This document shows, piece by piece, positions 3,770-9,366 of a DNA stretch of 13,532 bases. Numbering within the stretch: the stretch's first letter is position 1; each line of letters opens with the position of its first letter. The stretch is from contig JAJRZD010000098.1 in NCBI GenBank assembly GCA_024275415.1, positions 1 through 13,532 of the forward strand. Direction: 5' to 3'. The DNA comes from an archaeon (lineage in GTDB: Archaea > Asgardarchaeota > Thorarchaeia > Thorarchaeales > Thorarchaeaceae). The position numbers and the translations under genes were made by a program. Under the pieces are notes generated by a model that saw nothing but the letters and a program-made list of their open reading frames with translations, was not told the origin of the DNA and ran no database searches.

Positions 3770-3872
3770 GCCGAGGTATCCAAGTGGTTACGGAGACGGT
3801 CTCGAACTCTCAGAGATACGAGAGAACCGTTGCCCTTGTGGCTCGTGAGTTCGAATCTCATCCTCGGCGCCA
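3770..3872 (+). tRNA. tRNA-Ser(CGA) with 18-nt intron at 37/38, CCA encoded
   Basis: Acceptor GCCGAGG/CCTCGGC, D stem TCC/GGA, anticodon stem ACGGT/ACCGT, anticodon CGA at 3803-3805, long V arm GCC-CTTGT-GGC, T loop TTCGAAT, discriminator G then CCA. Confidence 0.95.
3807..3824 (+). other. tRNA-Ser intron (canonical 37/38 position, BHB)
   Basis: Central helix CTCG/CGAG with 3-nt bulges AA|C and AG|A. Confidence 0.88.
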
Positions 3873-4375: not shown

Positions 4376-4390
4376 TGTATTGCCGCTGAA
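4353..4390. terminator. Inverted repeat across the GNAT stop codon, between convergent genes (possible terminator or RNA-stability hairpin)
   Basis: TTCAGCGGC (4353-4361) is perfectly complementary to GCCGCTGAA (4382-4390). Confidence 0.3.
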
Positions 4391-4455
4391 ACTGGAACGG
4401 CTTCAGAGAGAACGATGCGTCAGTGCTCCTGTCTGCTGATGGAGCGACATGTGGC

Positions 4456-4797
4456 CTAGAATGTCAGGACAGAATATCCCTTCTCTATGAATGACAAGAG
4501 GTCACTATGTCCGCTCAGTTCTCCCTTCAGTGGGACACCGAGATTATCAGCAGCCTGTGCTGCATCGAACATGGATGTGCATGCCTTGCAAGCGTGATCT
4601 ATTATGCCCCGCTCTATTGCCTTGTTAAATGGAGGTATGTGTATCGTACCATCGGCAATGCCAATCAGTATCTTGGGCGATGCACACTCCAAGACGACAG
4701 CCACCTCGTGCCCCTTCTCATGGAAATTATTCGCATTCAATAGCAGATGGAAGAGCTGCATCTTGTTATCGTCAGTCGCAAGAAATAATTGCTTCAT
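4456..4797 (-). CDS. DsrE/DsrF-like family protein (113 aa)
   Basis: MKQLFLATDD...FHLLLNANNFHEKGHEVAVVLE...ACKACTSMFDA...LSGHSDLLSFIEKGYSVLTF shows the DsrE-fold pattern with a CxxC. A strong SD precedes ATG 4797. Confidence 0.8.
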   Translation of the reverse strand: MKQLFLATDDNKMQLFHLLLNANNFHEKGHEVAVVLECASPKILIGIADGTIHIPPFNKAIERGIIDHACKACTSMFDAAQAADNLGVPLKGELSGHSDLLSFIEKGYSVLTF

Positions 4798-4800
4798 GGG

Positions 4801-4809
4801 ACCTCCTCC
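4801..4809 (-). promoter_or_regulatory. Shine-Dalgarno site of the DsrE-like gene
   Basis: Minus strand reads GGAGGAGGT-CCC-ATG. Confidence 0.7.
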
Positions 4810-4997
4810 TGTTACATTTGGACTCCTACGATAACTACCTTTCGAGTGTGTCAGCACATTCGACGTAACCACATACTCCTCCCAGCCCTCCAGCGAAAAA
4901 TCGTTCGACGATTCCCAAAGGGGCAAAACCATCATATCCATTCACCAGTCCACCCACATCGGCTCTTTGCGGAGGTTGCCAAGCCAGGTCAACGGCG

Positions 4998-5086
4998 CAG
5001 GGTTTAGGCCCCTGTTCAGTAGTGATTTGGGCGCTGGTATCCAGCACTCGCACGGATCGCGAGTTCGAATCTCGCCCTCCGCACCA
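4998..5086 (+). repeat. 89-bp direct repeat, copy 1 (attL; tRNA-Leu position 27 through CCA)
   Basis: Base-for-base identical to 7488-7576 (offset 2,490). Flanks differ immediately on both sides (gcg|...|ttca versus aaa|...|cctt). Confidence 0.97.
5027..5056 (+). other. Putative tRNA-Leu variable-region intron (relaxed BHB; boundaries uncertain by a few nt)
   Basis: The insertion folds as T-GGG-C-GCTGG-TAT-CCAGC-A-CTC-G. Helix AGTG/CACG has 3 of 4 pairs, with bulges AT|T and GA|T. Removal restores a 14-nt Leu-type V region TTCAGTAGTGATTC. Confidence 0.65.
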
Positions 5087-5266
5087 TTCACATCCTTCTA
5101 AGTGAAGCTATTAGATTCCTGATGTGTTATTGATTGACGAGTTATATCTTCCGCATCAGCCACGGATATCCTGAGTGTACGAGTACATATCCTCTTCGCA
5201 TAACAAGAAGGGGAGTGAACTCGACTGACCAGAAACAGGTCAGAAATTTAAAAGGATCAGCGAACA

Positions 5267-6943
5267 ATGGCACGTTCCAAGGGCGTAACGGTAGCGGTGA
5301 AGGTACCCATCAAGTGGGAGGTCATGACAGGTAGGACTCGGCAACGACTCAGACAGATTGTTGGGAGGGATACCAGAGTCGTCCGTGCGTACTTGGGGAT
5401 CATAGAACAGTATGAGGACGATCTGCTGACCGGAAAAGATAGGACAAGGCTGGATGAAGGTAGATTGGACAGGCTCACCATGACAGCACTTAAGGTGAAG
5501 GCAGGATGTGAGCGGAGAGTTACCGTCCCACATGACTTCAAGGCTCGCTTCCCAAGGGCCTCCCCAAATGAGATTGCCGAATGTCGAAAGACCGCTGTCG
5601 CACTCTATGAGAGTTACTTGAAGCTTAGAGCAAAGAAAGGTCGAGATGCTTCCCGTCCCAAGTCGGTCAATACATCAGGGAGGATACCTCGGTGGATTTA
5701 CGCCCAGCGATTCAAGCTTGTCGAGCGGAAAACTGTGGTCGCCCGATGGTGGGTCGATCTTAGGGACTCCTTGGATTCCTCATTGGAGGGAAGGGCAGTC
5801 CATGACAGGCTTAACATCCCGCTCAAGATATCCCCTTTTCATGAAGAACAAATTCAGAGGGGGAAAGTCAAGGCACTTCAAATCTTCACTGACAGGAGTG
5901 GGAAATGGTGGGCGACCTTCGCGGTTCGAATCCCAACTAATGGCATCCAAGAAAACGATCTACCCGTTGCAATCCTTGGGATTGACCTAGGAATACGCAA
6001 GGCTGTGTGTACTTCCCTTCTCACTCCAGAGAAGACACGGGAGAGTAGATTCTTTGTTCAGAGAGAGAAGGTCAGTCGTATCAGCAGATATGATGATTTG
6101 GTAGCGACATTGCAGCACGAAATGCATACCCGAAAGAACAAAGGTATTGCGTATGACCATGTTGCCAAGAAACTCCGAGCAATCAGATTCAAGCGTGAGA
6201 ATATCTCTCGCGAATATGATAGAGTGTTGGTGCGACAGCTCATCAACTATATCACAGACCTCTCTCAGAAATACACACTCTACATAGCCATTGGTCGTCT
6301 GAAGAACATTACAATGCGTGCGCGACGTGGAACCAACAAGGGAATAAGATTTCGGGCTATGGTCAATTCATGGTCCTTTGCTAGGATTACCCAGAGCCTG
6401 AAGCACGGGCTAGCCCAGATTGGATGGGTCGTGGACGGGAAAGAGCCTCGTTTCAGGGTGGTTCCAGAGGCGTGGACCTCCATCATCTGCTGGAAGTGTG
6501 GGATAAAGGGAAGAAGACCAATGCAGGACTACTTCCATTGTCCCTCCTGTGGACAGAAGACCAATGCAGACAGGAATGGAAGCGTCAACATCGCAGCACG
6601 CATGCTCACGCTCACAAAGTCATTGCACTCTGTGGGAGGACTAGGCCTGTGGGCTAGAGCTCTGGACAGGGCTCGACGTGCACGACCGAAAGCCCAGCGG
6701 AAATCGTCTTCCAAAGGGAAGTCCTTACTCCTCGCGAAGGGATCTGCATCGGAACCCGGGGAGTCCGCGGTAGCTCACTTTGCTCAGACGAGCCTCACCA
6801 GCTTCAGTGATGGGGTCGGTGAGAGTGAGGATGACCCTGCCGTGGGAAGAACTGTGGAAACCCTTGCTGTCGCCGGGAGTGATGCCCCGGCAATCGGACA
6901 GGAGGAGGAAGCCCGGTCCGGAGGAGGGATACCATCCCGATGA
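5267..6943 (+). CDS. tnpB: TnpB (IS200/IS605/IS607-type RNA-guided nuclease) with rearranged RuvC-II site
   Basis: RuvC-I ILGIDLG (D240); RuvC-II IAIGRLKNI (G343 where E is canonical); VVPEAWTS (E401); Zn finger CWKC...CPSC (C408/C411/C425/C428); RuvC-III NADRNGSVNIA (D435); low-complexity C-terminal tail of about 115 aa. Confidence 0.93.
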   Translation: MARSKGVTVAVKVPIKWEVMTGRTRQRLRQIVGRDTRVVRAYLGIIEQYEDDLLTGKDRTRLDEGRLDRLTMTALKVKAGCERRVTVPHDFKARFPRASPNEIAECRKTAVALYESYLKLRAKKGRDASRPKSVNTSGRIPRWIYAQRFKLVERKTVVARWWVDLRDSLDSSLEGRAVHDRLNIPLKISPFHEEQIQRGKVKALQIFTDRSGKWWATFAVRIPTNGIQENDLPVAILGIDLGIRKAVCTSLLTPEKTRESRFFVQREKVSRISRYDDLVATLQHEMHTRKNKGIAYDHVAKKLRAIRFKRENISREYDRVLVRQLINYITDLSQKYTLYIAIGRLKNITMRARRGTNKGIRFRAMVNSWSFARITQSLKHGLAQIGWVVDGKEPRFRVVPEAWTSIICWKCGIKGRRPMQDYFHCPSCGQKTNADRNGSVNIAARMLTLTKSLHSVGGLGLWARALDRARRARPKAQRKSSSKGKSLLLAKGSASEPGESAVAHFAQTSLTSFSDGVGESEDDPAVGRTVETLAVAGSDAPAIGQEEEARSGGGIPSR

Positions 6944-6945
6944 TG
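6600..6945 (+). ncRNA. Putative omegaRNA (reRNA) scaffold overlapping the 3' end of tnpB; boundaries approximate
   Basis: Dense hairpins in the non-domain tail: CTTCC/GGAAG, CTCACC/GGTGAG, GCCGGG/CCCGGC, CGGAC/GTCCG, GGGAT/ATCCC. omegaRNAs typically overlap tnpB 3' ends. Confidence 0.45.
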
Positions 6946-6960
6946 ACGGACAATGCCCTT

Positions 6961-7078
6961 GCTGACCTTGGGACTCTCTGGGTCTTGGGGAGTGGTGACA
7001 CTGGCAGGGGAGGGGCGGAACACAGAGGTTTCTTGCAGTTGTGGTTCACTCACCAGTCACTGCTAGAGATAGGTCAGC
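6961..7078 (+). other. 118-nt rod-like hairpin immediately downstream of tnpB
   Basis: Nested helices: 6961-6968/7071-7078 (GCTGACCT/AGGTCAGC, perfect), 6975-6979/7065-7069, 6990-6998/7050-7058 (8 of 9 pairs), 7004-7011/7029-7036 (with G-U pairs). Confidence 0.55.
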
Positions 7079-7487
7079 TAAACCTTGCGCCGTTAATTCA
7101 AAGGGCGATAAGGGTGCATAGGGGGGATGGTAGTTAGTAGTTTGGGATTGGTTTGAATATTGTTCAAGTATTCTTTAATCTCACCCAACCATTTTGAGTG
7201 ATGGGAGGACGGGTCTTCTAGACATTGCCTTTTCGATAAAATGTCTTGGAATGGGCATGATCGCCAACCCTTCCGGAAGTATTTGAATCATTAGCACCTA
7301 CTGATAGCTAAATCGCAAAATCAGAGATTCTTGATATGTTTGGTGCAGACAAAACAAAGAATGTGAAGGAAGATCTCTATCGTCCTGAAAAAGAGGGGGC
7401 GAATGATTTCTTTGGCTAGTCTGACATAAATGCTCTTGAAAGGCAACTAAATGTAAAATAGAGTCAAAATGGCAAATCGCATAGAAA

Positions 7488-7576
7488 CAGGGTTTAGGCC
7501 CCTGTTCAGTAGTGATTTGGGCGCTGGTATCCAGCACTCGCACGGATCGCGAGTTCGAATCTCGCCCTCCGCACCA
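7488..7576 (+). repeat. 89-bp direct repeat, copy 2 (attR): 5'-truncated tRNA-Leu fragment retaining anticodon arm, intron, T arm and CCA
   Basis: Identical to 4998-5086. It lacks the 5' acceptor strand and D arm (preceded by ...atcgcatagaaa). Confidence 0.97.
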
Positions 7577-7680
7577 CCTTTTGTCCTGTCGTGTTCAAAG
7601 TGAGCAGGTTCTCACGCCTCGTGTGATGGGATTTTCTGTCCTCATCGATTGTGGGCCGGACAATGACAAGAAATGCGGGA

Positions 7681-7821
7681 CTAGTCCTTGGTTTCCCAGT
7701 TATGGGTACACCGAGGGCATCGCCAGCTCTTCTTGTACTTCCCGGGCTCGATGAGTTCCTTTCGCACAACGGCTGTTTCAGTATAGCCACAACGGGGACA
7801 AATCTCAGATGACATTGACAT
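7681..7821 (-). CDS. Small zinc-ribbon protein (46 aa), not in the ORF track
   Basis: Manual translation: MSMSSEICPRCGYTETAVVRKELIEPGKYKKSWRCPRCTHNWETKD*, with two CPRC knuckles. Co-oriented with the upstream membrane-protein gene. Confidence 0.65.
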   Translation of the reverse strand: MSMSSEICPRCGYTETAVVRKELIEPGKYKKSWRCPRCTHNWETKD

Positions 7822-7872
7822 AGAACACCGTCCTTTGGGTCACAGGAAGCCAATTTCTAGTTTACTCTGACA

Positions 7873-8703
7873 TCATATCGGCAATGGTTTGACGCGCCTC
7901 CTGCGTGAGAGGGGCAGCTCTATCATGCCGCGTAGGTGGAGCGCGCCCAACACTGCCACCAAGCTAGCTGTGCTCAGGAGGGACAAACCGATGATTAGGT
8001 CAATGAGGATGATGGGCTGAGCGGTGCCTTGTGTGTTGATATGGATGTACCCCTCCTCGCTGTAATAGTCCAGAGTGGAGCTAGAGAGGGTAGCGTTACG
8101 TGGATAGACCTCATTGGAATATTTCTCTAGCTCGATGGTAAGGATCTTATCGGAATAGTCGATCACAGAGCCGTCAATCAGGCTGATTCGAAGTCCATCA
8201 AGGACTATGTAGCCCCCGAACATGGGTAGGAACTGCGAGCGCGCATCGTCATCGATCAGCATGTATCCACCGAACAGCCGCCCATCAACCACCGTGCCTG
8301 AAGCAGAGAATATCGGTGAGGAGTCTAGGAGGTCATGGTAATACCCGGCGCTGTCGCGCCATTTCGGATAGAAAGCGATCTCCTTGAAGGTCATGTTCTG
8401 CACAAGGGGACGCCCGAGCATCGTCTTTCCAAAGTAGATTCCCATCGAGACCGTGAAGTAGTGCTCGTTCAGGGTAGGCTGGTGATGCTGATAGAGGAAG
8501 TTGATCCTGAAGGAGCTACGAAGGAGTACTACCTCTGTCCCGTCCTCAAGCTCGAATGCCGCACGATAGGTGAAATAGCCGACCTCGATGAACGCACGGG
8601 GGGCTCCGCCCCCAGGCTCCTGGGCGGCCACAGGCTGTGCGTACATTGCAGGGGTGATAGCGATCATGAGGAGGATGCCGATTAGCAGTGTGGGCGTTCT
8701 CAT
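7873..8703 (-). CDS. Hypothetical exported protein with signal peptide and C-terminal membrane anchor
   Basis: MRTPTLLIGILLMIAITPAMYAQPVAA is signal-like. The C-terminus has a hydrophobic stretch (IILIDLIIGLSLLSTASLVAVLGALHL) followed by a basic tail RRRRVK. ATG 8703 is preferred over 8742. Confidence 0.75.
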   Translation of the reverse strand: MRTPTLLIGILLMIAITPAMYAQPVAAQEPGGGAPRAFIEVGYFTYRAAFELEDGTEVVLLRSSFRINFLYQHHQPTLNEHYFTVSMGIYFGKTMLGRPLVQNMTFKEIAFYPKWRDSAGYYHDLLDSSPIFSASGTVVDGRLFGGYMLIDDDARSQFLPMFGGYIVLDGLRISLIDGSVIDYSDKILTIELEKYSNEVYPRNATLSSSTLDYYSEEGYIHINTQGTAQPIILIDLIIGLSLLSTASLVAVLGALHLRGMIELPLSRRRRVKPLPI

Positions 8704-8888
8704 CGTCCTTTCGACCTTACCTAGTATGGTACTAGTTCCCACTTATCCCTAAAATACAGTTGCGTTACCAGCAATTTCAAGTACGTGTAGTCAACGCTGT
8801 AAGATTGCTAACGAAAGGTTCATATCGCCACTGTCATTTGCGTTCATACTGGTCTTTGGAAGACCAACGCAGGGGACGTGGCCTAGTC

Positions 8889-8918
8889 TGCGTCTAGGAA
8901 TCTCCTAGGAGCCTAGAA
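8889..8918 (+). other. tRNA-Trp intron 1 (30 nt, D loop, about 17/17a)
   Basis: BHB: helix CTAG/CTAG, bulges TC|T and AA|C, inner stem GC-G-TCTAGG/CCTAGG-A-GC. Confidence 0.85.
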
Positions 8919-8939
8919 CGGTATGGCGACGGGCTCCAG

Positions 8940-9018
8940 ATCTAGGTCCACTTCGGGCCTGAACTGAGCGGGTCAATAAAGGACGTCGCCTAGGCGAAAC
9001 TCGTAGAACGCGGGGATG
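8940..9018 (+). other. tRNA-Trp intron 2 (79 nt, 37/38)
   Basis: Lies between G37 (8939) and A38-CCCGT (9019). The BHB is relaxed (CTCC/GGGA, 3 of 4 pairs). Confidence 0.75.
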
Positions 9019-9048
9019 ACCCCGTTCGAGGAACGATCGGGAGTTCAA

Positions 9049-9079
9049 AAGGCGATATGATTTCACATATCGCTTGGAA
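9049..9079 (+). other. tRNA-Trp intron 3 (31 nt, T loop, 59/60)
   Basis: BHB: helix TTCA/TGGA, bulges AA|A and AT|T, inner stem GGCGATATG/CATATCGCT, outer pair G53-C61. Confidence 0.87.
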
Positions 9080-9366
9080 TTCTCCCCGTCCCCACCATTT
9101 TGATTCTACTACATGCAGTTTCTCGGTTTCGAAGAGCTGTGACTTCAAATCCTTTCAAGTGATAGAGCAGAGTGAGGGAAGAAATACGCACCACCGAGAT
9201 ACGCACGCCAACTGTTTCTTTGAAGGAGCACGCATCAGGTTCATGGAACAGGTGGCAAGTGGCCTTGGCCACGAGGTCACTTTGCGGTGCCTCGGAACAC
9301 ACGACAAAGGTCACTGGGACTATGAGTTTTGCGATACGCCCTCATAATTCCCCCTTCCCACCAAAG

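Follow-up and report, generated by a model that had tools for sequence, protein, structure and literature searches.

A lone tnpB gene beside tRNA-Leu(UAG) in a Thorarchaeota contig, with tRNA-Leu antisense sequence in its predicted guide slot

How might a small stretch of DNA that encodes a TnpB nuclease and no integrase come to be bracketed by copies of the 3' part of a tRNA gene? This question is raised by contig JAJRZD010000098.1 from a Thorarchaeales metagenome-assembled genome (MAG; GCA_024275415.1; 3.5 Mb in 127 contigs, 92.9% complete). The window analysed here is this entire 13,532-bp contig, and the unit in question lies between two copies of part of its tRNA-Leu(UAG) gene. Cas12 and, in eukaryotes, Fanzor proteins descend from TnpB, and eukaryotes have their closest known relatives in the Asgard archaea. 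We find that the position directly after the predicted guide-RNA scaffold of this TnpB holds a 17-mer antisense to tRNA-Leu, and this sets the unit apart from both a plain insertion sequence and a classical integrase island. With confidence a little better than even, we read it as a stranded, non-autonomous remnant of a Thorarchaeota family that pairs TnpB with a giant (aCas1) protein, lodged at tRNA-Leu(UAG).

The initial annotation had described an exact 89-bp duplication from tRNA position 27 to the CCA, tnpB as the sole recognisable gene between the repeats, and an integrase-free unit within a tRNA-Leu gene whose 3' part is duplicated, and each of these statements was borne out. A repeat search of the window found two 89-nt copies in direct orientation, 100% identical, at 4998-5086 and 7488-7576 (spacing 2,490), which span canonical tRNA position 27 (gene position 30, the first base of the anticodon stem) to the encoded CCA. 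They enclose 2,401 bp, so that the bracketed unit measures 2.49 kb. One open reading frame (ORF) in it, at 5267-6943, is recognisable by Pfam, and no integrase-like frame was found in the unit, including across the junction that circularisation would create. The features of the unit are:

4969-5086, forward strand: complete tRNA-Leu(UAG) with encoded CCA and a non-canonical intron of ~30 nt (Rfam RF00005 and orthologue alignments)
4998-5086, forward strand: first copy of the direct repeat, canonical position 27 to CCA (repeat search)
5087-5166, no strand: spacer from the tRNA to the conserved TnpB unit, without significant similarity to the 362-nt spacer of the sister copy in genome G013
5176-5243, forward strand: conserved left unit of ~70 nt (TGTACGAG...GGAGTGAAC...), from alignments of 12-23 copies
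5267-6943, forward strand: tnpB, 558 aa, intact (Pfam Cas12f1-like TNB domain, E 1e-10)
6790-7077, forward strand: predicted guide-RNA (omega RNA) scaffold and right end (RNAalifold, 24 copies)
7078-7094, forward strand: 17-mer in the putative guide slot, antisense to tRNA-Leu 4991-5007, 16 of 17 positions matched
7095-7487, no strand: unique AT-rich 393 nt with no convincing gene and no match in relatives
7488-7576, forward strand: second copy of the direct repeat, the tRNA 3' part alone with intron and CCA (repeat search)

The bracketing gene gives a full-length Rfam match at 4969-5083 (45.9 bits, against a gathering score of 29), and has the anticodon loop UUUAGGC (UAG, Leu), a long type-II variable arm and discriminator A. 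Its intron of ~30 nt (~5027-5056) lies at the junction of the variable arm and T-stem and is present in both repeat copies. The orthologue in G013, a relative from another genus, is an intron-less 88-nt type-II tRNA-Leu(UAG); orthologues from the same genus as the window carry a homologous insert, which marks it as a native non-canonical intron. ARAGORN made no tRNA call at 4969-5086 in default mode. With introns allowed it returned the same coordinates as Thr(GGU), which, given the alignment to the G013 Leu(UAG) gene, we read as a wrong placement of the intron. Among the tRNAs detected in the genome, tRNA-Leu(UAG) is the only one with a second copy of its 3' end on its own contig.

The tnpB gene is present once in the source genome, and its product carries the catalytic residues of the RuvC fold, D240 of RuvC-I (GIDLG), a relocated RuvC-II glutamate, Glu401 (VVPEAWTS), and D435 of RuvC-III (NADRN), together with a zinc finger (CWKC/CPSC). 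The usual RuvC-II site is occupied by Gly343. Compared with the sister copy in G013, the body of the gene has a nonsynonymous divergence (dN) of 0.195, and synonymous divergence (dS) is saturated. Nucleotide identity between the two is 80% in the tail that overlaps the scaffold and 68% in the catalytic body, and the tail beyond approximately residue 450 would be read through the guide-RNA gene. Judged by its coding sequence, TnpB is shown to be intact and under purifying selection.

For the last 288 nt before the putative guide slot, RNAalifold on 24 copies predicts a structure of 72 pairs, 46 of them with compensatory changes, and this covariation supports the assignment of the region as a guide-RNA scaffold. 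The terminal GGUCA takes part in long-range pairing with an upstream UGAC, and a GTTCACTCA motif at 7045-7053 is kept in all aligned copies. Across copies the right end reads ...GTTCACTCAC...AGAAACAGGTCA(G/T), and the terminus in the window is AGGTCAG. As in TnpB/OMEGA systems, the scaffold extends over the gene's 3' end and terminates where the element does, at its right end. The scaffold probably starts further upstream, near 6600. At the other side, the left unit ends in a hairpin (CTGACC-AGAAACA-GGTCAG, 5225-5243) common to all aligned copies, and is flanked on both sides by TATA-like boxes, which in relatives form a duplicate spaced 94-95 nt apart. In the window (5139-5255) and in all aligned copies, the terminus of the left unit, GAAACAGGTCAG, is the same as that of the right end and is directly followed by the TATA-like box of tnpB.

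The 17-mer at 7078-7094 is antisense to canonical positions ~21-36 of the tRNA, a target that overlaps the left edge of the repeat at position 27, and its single mismatch would form an rU:dG wobble. It is the only match with two or fewer mismatches in the 3.5-Mb genome, and the probability of such a match by chance is ~6e-7 for one fixed position and one tRNA. The sequence after the right end varies among other copies, as it would for a guide or a flank. The G013 sister copy carries the same antisense piece, extended to 20 nt and with the same CAAGG version of the stem. Significant similarity between the window and G013 ends at 7094, past which the two loci are unrelated, as they are in their left spacers. 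Comparison of the G013 island with 7095-7487 and with the left spacer gave scores within the range of shuffled sequences, and homology was rejected. No homologue of 7095-7487 was found in 40 relatives or elsewhere in the source genome. The CAAGG stem occurs in the tRNA-Leu genes of neither the source genome nor G013. It is found in intact tRNA-Leu(UAG) genes of three genomes from two other genera (G012, G094 and G062), which agree with 19 of 20 positions of the G013 piece and with 18 of 20 of the window piece, the 14-nt core being exact. Because the best match is to other genera and not to the hosts, the piece appears to be derived from, or aimed at, a CAAGG-type tRNA-Leu and to have travelled with the module.

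The module belongs to a larger set of elements. Nucleotide homology to ~14 copies extends from ~5176 to 7055/7077, and for the closest copy, that of G013 (72% nucleotide identity), it covers 5167-7094. The conserved TnpB unit (~5167-7094) is one member, lacking the partner, of a Thorarchaeota family present in many copies. A long divergent frame precedes tnpB in about 21 of the 33 evaluable full copies; it is absent from the window copy, from G013 and from nine others. These giant frames are mutually homologous (1,533-1,857 aa where followed), and conservation leftward of tnpB in relatives continues into them; no trace of one was found in the window or in the rest of the source genome. In a tree of TnpB proteins the window and G013 copies form a clade (support 100/99) nested among partner-bearing copies, and partner-less copies are scattered over the tree, which suggests repeated loss of the partner. 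Giant partner genes were located in relatives as follows:

L049, 1-2538, reverse strand, with L069, 5465-8599, reverse strand: giant partner gene
L060, 1-2145, reverse strand, with L070, 6544-9099, reverse strand: giant partner gene
L071, 6776-10099, reverse strand: giant partner gene
L072, 3-2654, forward strand: giant partner gene

A conserved stretch in the giant partners (VDLTIF...VLEIKT) resembles a PD-(D/E)xK nuclease motif. Relatives contain up to 34 tnpB matches, many of them fragments that cover only residues ~445-558. Dozens of such solo fragments, consisting of the last ~110 codons of tnpB and the right end, occur in G006, G007, G009, G012, G017 and others (L083-L113), and amount to scaffold-plus-flank units with no nuclease gene, each with a different sequence downstream. 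They may be deletion remnants or guide units usable in trans.

Two groups of Asgard TnpBs linked to aCas1, Cas1H-Asgard-1 and -2, have been described, and a conserved GTTCACTCA motif was named downstream of tnpB in that work (Altae-Tran 2023, PMC10691335). The presence of this motif at 7045-7053 places the window TnpB with the aCas1-associated Asgard group, and no aCas1 gene adjoins it. No match to the Y1 transposase family (PF01797) was found in the source genome, at the completeness given above, and control genomes respond to the same search; thus neither the element nor the genome supplies the Y1 HUH TnpA of IS200/IS605 elements. Close relatives of this TnpB were not found on viral contigs. 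Repetition of the GTTCACTCA motif beyond the guide was considered and rejected, as no such motif occurs within 260 nt after any right end. Among four full elements searched for a target duplication at both ends, a long match was seen in the G011 copy only (15 nt), and it is inverted and tRNA-derived. The candidate bases on the target-adjacent motif (TAM) side of four tRNA-matching guides are GGAC/GGGC, GATC and GTAC, with no firm consensus.

The association with tRNAs extends beyond the window. Among ~66 evaluable right ends surveyed in relatives, ~15 lie within 200 nt of a tRNA or abut a tRNA fragment. Nine have an Rfam-supported tRNA no more than 200 nt downstream, in all nine cases antisense to tnpB, and six of these are tRNA-Gly(UCC) genes that abut the right end, in six genomes. 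Antisense tRNA fragments occur at the right ends in the window, G013, G007:C28 and G022:C57, and sense fragments in G024:C91 (44 nt) and G016:C24. G016 has a 2.09-kb TnpB-only unit between tRNA-Ser and a 12-nt copy of the tRNA-Ser 3' end, which starts 1 nt past the right end. In an intact copy in G011:C11, tRNA-Thr(UGU) comes first, followed by the giant gene, tnpB and the right end; the next 15 nt are antisense to this tRNA-Thr at its positions -1 to 14. Roughly three quarters of the surveyed right ends lie away from tRNAs and have no att repeats, and the tRNA link of the family is a strong bias, not a rule. The initial annotation allowed that the unit might prove to be an ordinary insertion sequence inside a decayed island if the same tnpB were found at many non-tRNA sites, with insertion-sequence ends and no att repeats. 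Half of this picture holds, in that the family does occupy many such sites with conserved ends. However, the enrichment at tRNAs and the tRNA-Leu antisense 17-mer in the guide slot contradict the conclusion that an ordinary insertion sequence is involved.

Several arrangements near right ends are described here in their own right. In G011:C11 (L066 ~2380-2409), a second copy of the terminal motif, AGAAACAGGTCAG, occurs 29 nt after the right end, so that the tRNA-antisense 15-mer lies between two copies of the last 13 nt of the scaffold, as repeat-spacer-repeat; L081 has a similar tandem partial right end. Arrays of five repeats (19-28 nt, core TCAGTGGAAGGCT) lie downstream of the tRNA-Gly(UCC) that abuts the right end in L060 (4149-4703) and L062 (1882-2198). 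They resemble the conserved scaffold motif and are spaced 55-60 nt apart in one genome and 105-175 nt in the other, and may be either degenerate copies of the right end or a mini-array of guide units. In G009:C54 (L056 2205-2401), a 68-nt partial copy of tRNA-Val is found 129 nt upstream of the full gene and just upstream of a partner-less TnpB copy, forming another small repeat-bounded insertion at a tRNA; a tRNA 3' repeat proposed after the right end of this copy was not significant.

The tRNA-Leu locus itself is occupied in other genomes. Repeat-bounded islets are found at the same tRNA-Leu in G011 (repeats of 28-34 nt), G013 (36 nt) and G023 (23 nt, three copies). The internal order in G013 is that of the window, namely tRNA-Leu, TnpB unit, antisense piece and tRNA 3' repeat, and there it has the expected orientation. 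In G020 (contig C5; L048 1582-4670), tRNA-Leu(UAG) is split right after the anticodon by a 3-kb insert. Besides a gene for a BNR-repeat protein, the insert carries a second tRNA-Leu(UAG), which is complete, inverted and intron-bearing and differs in its anticodon stem. The 3' end of the split gene has stayed in front of a DsrE-like gene, and the insert is likely a case of a replacement tRNA that does not involve TnpB. To compare gene order around the unit, the flanks of the window are needed:

4456-4941, reverse strand: DsrE-like gene of the left flank, facing the tRNA 5' end from 27 nt away
7665-8742, reverse strand: spacer and 289-aa ORF of the right flank, facing the 3' end of the second repeat copy

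In G011, G013 and G020, the DsrE-like gene is downstream of the tRNA-Leu 3' end. G013 and G020 have the order S3Ae (reverse), tRNA-Leu (forward), DsrE-like (forward) and PGM (reverse), the additional reverse tRNA of G020 being placed between the DsrE-like gene and PGM, and G011 has tRNA-Leu (forward) followed by the DsrE-like gene (forward). In four genomes of the same genus as the window (G001, G004, G005 and G006), the 289-aa ORF is upstream of the tRNA-Leu 5' end; homology of this flank begins 43-57 nt before the tRNA in most of them, and at 7665-7683 in the window. The tRNA-Leu of these four genomes is island-free, beside the same ORF, and in the opposite orientation, and an empty site with the same flanks and orientation, as expected of a tyrosine-integrase island, was not seen among them.

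Tyrosine integrases make tRNA islands of this layout, and the unit could be a non-autonomous integrative element: a circle with tRNA positions 27-76 as attP would be inserted and excised by a tyrosine integrase acting in trans, with tnpB as cargo. We regard this as rather unlikely. The layout is the classic one, in which a complete tRNA is followed by an island and then by a direct repeat of its own 3' part from the anticodon stem onward, several relatives have islets at the same tRNA, and the genome contains two full and one partial tyrosine-recombinase matches (on contigs C119, C116 and C43). However, no integrase gene lies within the repeat-bounded DNA or across its circular junction, no integrase domain was found in the tested ORFs of the G013 and G020 islets, and no tRNA was detected on C119 or C116, the contigs with the full matches. 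The exact 36-nt att word gave no match in metagenome contigs or genome contigs, and was found on no other public contig. An integrase in trans would also leave the antisense piece in the guide slot and the family-wide tRNA link unexplained. Two hidden integrases were looked for and rejected: a split integrase of the SSV type across the circularised junction, where only a 99-aa frame with no recognisable features exists, and a shared integrase represented by a 313-aa ORF in G013 and a 323-aa ORF in G020, which are mutually unrelated. The crossover in the anticodon loop that the initial annotation proposed is compatible with the start of the repeat at position 27, but no test result supports it, and no integrase is seen in the islets examined in relatives (G013 and G020).

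We return to the reading of the unit as a stranded remnant of the giant-protein/TnpB family. An ancestral element would have inserted, antisense, into a CAAGG-type tRNA-Leu(UAG) between positions 36 and 37. Its right end would thereby have abutted the 5' half of the tRNA, and the antisense piece would be the flank of that insertion. Such elements may bring their own tRNA copy, as the intact G011 copy suggests. The module, with ~20 nt of flank, would later have been carried to other genera and would have lost the giant gene, and would now lie just downstream of a working tRNA-Leu. The 89-bp repeat could have arisen by recombination within the tRNA 3' part, either by a recombinase acting in trans or by homologous recombination, and the same kind of event may have left the integrase-less, repeat-bounded islets in G011, G013 and G023. 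The exact identity of the two copies would be maintained by recency or by gene conversion. As predicted from the pairing of guide and target, the TnpB-guide complex most likely has little or no activity on the neighbouring tRNA today, because guide position 8 forms a wobble, three distal positions are mismatched and the TAM-side base differs.

A number of observations weigh against this history. At 89 bp, the repeat far exceeds the target duplication of a transposase, and because of this length the transposase of the family presumably did not make it. A 10-bp target duplication of positions 27-36, which would have linked the antisense piece to the repeat, was rejected, since in G013 the repeat begins within the variable arm and no remnant is seen upstream of it. 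The edges of the repeat also vary among genomes (89, 36, 28-34 and 23 nt), and its exact identity in the window is hard to square with an old arrangement, given saturated dS to G013, unless gene conversion has acted. The antisense piece is 85% identical (17/20) between the window and G013 despite saturated synonymous sites, and its conservation hints at a present function and not a relic. The first bases after right ends are biased (T/G, then C-T/C-N-G-A), which gives slightly less weight to the first six matches of the 17-mer. The term guide slot is itself drawn from the position of the scaffold end and from analogy with characterised TnpBs. Cas1 homology of the giant partner was not demonstrated: its N- and C-terminal parts gave no Pfam match, and there was none to NCBIfam or, with a four-sequence profile, to PDB sequences; the ESM Atlas gave no usable named cluster, and an AlphaFold2 model had a mean predicted local distance difference test score (pLDDT) of 35.9 and was unusable. 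Finally, the segment 4969-7576 is inverted relative to both of its flanks when compared with seven comparator genomes. The inversion falls outside the proposed history and needs an extra event, and no single simple event was found that yields the layout.

The inversion bears on the assembly as well. It is very improbable, in our estimation, that the metagenome assembler created the repeat or turned the segment around, although the contig is a 13.5-kb MAG contig with an exact repeat shorter than a read pair. The same internal order is found independently in G013, and direct repeats give rise to deletions or tandem copies, not inversions. Inverted repeats at the ends of the segment amount to 8 bp of acceptor stem, too short to mislead a k-mer assembler. 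Inverted repeats were also rejected as the cause of the inversion, as only this 8-bp pair and a 9-nt match inside the DsrE-like gene were found. In the region 4376-7664, the order of the GNAT gene, the DsrE-like gene and the tRNA differs among genomes of the same genus. Given these differences and the inverted segment, the tRNA-Leu locus appears to be a hotspot of rearrangement.

Homing-endonuclease 'mobile ORF' elements duplicate the 3' end of their host gene, and the unit could have been made in a related way, as an RNA-guided homing cassette. TnpB, with a built-in guide against tRNA-Leu(UAG), would cut cassette-free genes, whether these lie on other chromosome copies of a polyploid cell or are met after DNA exchange. 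A cassette-bearing copy or circle would then serve as repair template by way of the tRNA 3' part that both have in common, so that the cassette would be inserted and the 3' part of the cut gene would become the downstream repeat. We think it unlikely that this occurred, and the broader proposal, that Thorarchaeota TnpB modules with a heritable tRNA guide insert and keep small cassettes at that tRNA by RNA-guided cutting and homologous repair, independently of an integrase and with duplication of the tRNA 3' part, is similarly doubtful. The guide target (21-36) overlaps the left edge of the repeat (27), as the target of a mobile ORF does, and 17 of 20 positions of the piece have been kept between two copies saturated in dS, whereas the sequences directly past the piece are unrelated. 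Its apparent movement between genera together with the module, the constraint on TnpB and its scaffold, the lack of integrase domains in the tested islet ORFs, and the TnpB-only unit of G016 with its tRNA-Ser repeat are consistent with homing as well. Insertion of a mobile ORF destroys its target, however, and here the intact tRNA retains 16 of 17 target positions, so that protection would require a block by the wobble, the distal mismatches or a TAM difference. In G013 the guide agrees with the tRNA of its own genome at no more than 16 of 20 positions, and neither guide has tracked the tRNA of its host. The predicted cut also falls 5-12 nt outside the shared homology, and homing would not account for the inverted orientation of the flanks.

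Other features of the window lie outside the unit. A second intron-bearing type-II tRNA is found at 3770-3869 (forward strand; Rfam, 43.7 bits), with ~21 extra nt in its anticodon loop; ARAGORN misses it in default mode and, with introns allowed, reports Ser(CGA) with an 18-nt intron. An Rfam search of the whole window at a permissive threshold (E up to 1) reported no tRNA at 8872-9096, where a three-intron tRNA-Trp had been proposed. Pfam matches elsewhere in the window include DUF1512 and a PhoU-AbrB regulator; like the intron-bearing tRNAs, these independently point to an archaeal source.

The locus bears on how TnpB elements that do not use a classical Y1 transposase choose their targets. 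One Asgard TnpB family is tied to tRNA genes, and tRNA sequence in its guide slot can cross genus boundaries; its TnpB persists as a lone gene beside a matching tRNA, under purifying selection. To what is known of such families, this locus adds the carriage of a guide piece across genera, repeat-bounded units with TnpB alone, and the inversion of a unit relative to its flanks. If the guide is functional, it would represent a natural, fixed and self-carried guide on a pre-CRISPR nuclease, and might offer a route to integrase-free, RNA-programmed insertion at tRNA genes. Should homing prove to be true, the unit would be an RNA-programmed counterpart both to homing-endonuclease mobile ORFs and to tRNA-homing CRISPR transposons. 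If the piece is a relic only, it records how tRNA genes have been broken, replaced and rearranged, as intron-bearing copies, inverted copies and repeat-bounded islets.

Among known systems, ISDra2-type TnpBs and their omega RNAs reportedly combine a RuvC domain and zinc finger with a scaffold that extends over the gene's 3' end, and the sequence flanking the right end is said to act as the guide, so that the nuclease recognises the former site of the element. The unit resembles these IS200/IS605 OMEGA modules in its RuvC and zinc-finger nuclease and in a predicted scaffold that runs from the overlapping gene 3' end to the right end. Unlike them, it has no Y1 TnpA in the genome, its RuvC-II glutamate is relocated, conservation on its left runs into the partner gene in relatives, and the candidate TAM-side bases show no firm consensus. 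Moreover, a piece of flank appears to have been carried to new genomes with the module, which peel-and-paste transposition does not do.

Tyrosine-integrase islands in tRNA genes resemble the unit in having a complete tRNA at one end and, beyond the island, a direct repeat of the 3' part of that tRNA from the anticodon stem onward, but differ from it in that neither the unit nor the tested ORFs of sister islets include an integrase, and in the tRNA piece of the guide slot and the inverted flanks. Type V-K CRISPR-associated transposons reportedly home to tRNA genes by means of a dedicated short guide. The likeness lies in a protein of the Cas12 lineage and a fixed guide against an adjoining tRNA gene; here, in contrast, the nuclease site is intact, no Tn7-like machinery is present, the target and insertion geometry are different, and the guide is a predicted one.

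Casposons, which use Cas1-type transposases, occupy tRNA-Leu 3' ends in either orientation and share the tRNA-Leu site with integrase-type elements (Krupovic et al. 2016, PMC4779613). Unlike casposons, the unit has no recognised PolB, terminal inverted repeats or short target duplication, and has instead an 89-bp repeat and an RNA-guided nuclease. The aCas1-associated Asgard TnpB transposons (PMC10691335) are compared last. The window copy is partner-less, and the Cas1 homology of the partner in relatives was not confirmed; the variable stretch lies here after the final AGGTCA(G/T) and not before GTTCACTCA; and tRNAs are absent from the main text of PMC10691335, whereas about one fifth of the right ends described here are at tRNA genes or fragments and a tRNA-Leu piece occupies the guide slot. 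Both sets of elements have an Asgard host, a large divergent partner gene and multiple copies in relatives, a conserved region with GTTCACTCA downstream of tnpB and, beside that conserved 3' region, a variable stretch of the kind proposed in that paper to be the guide.

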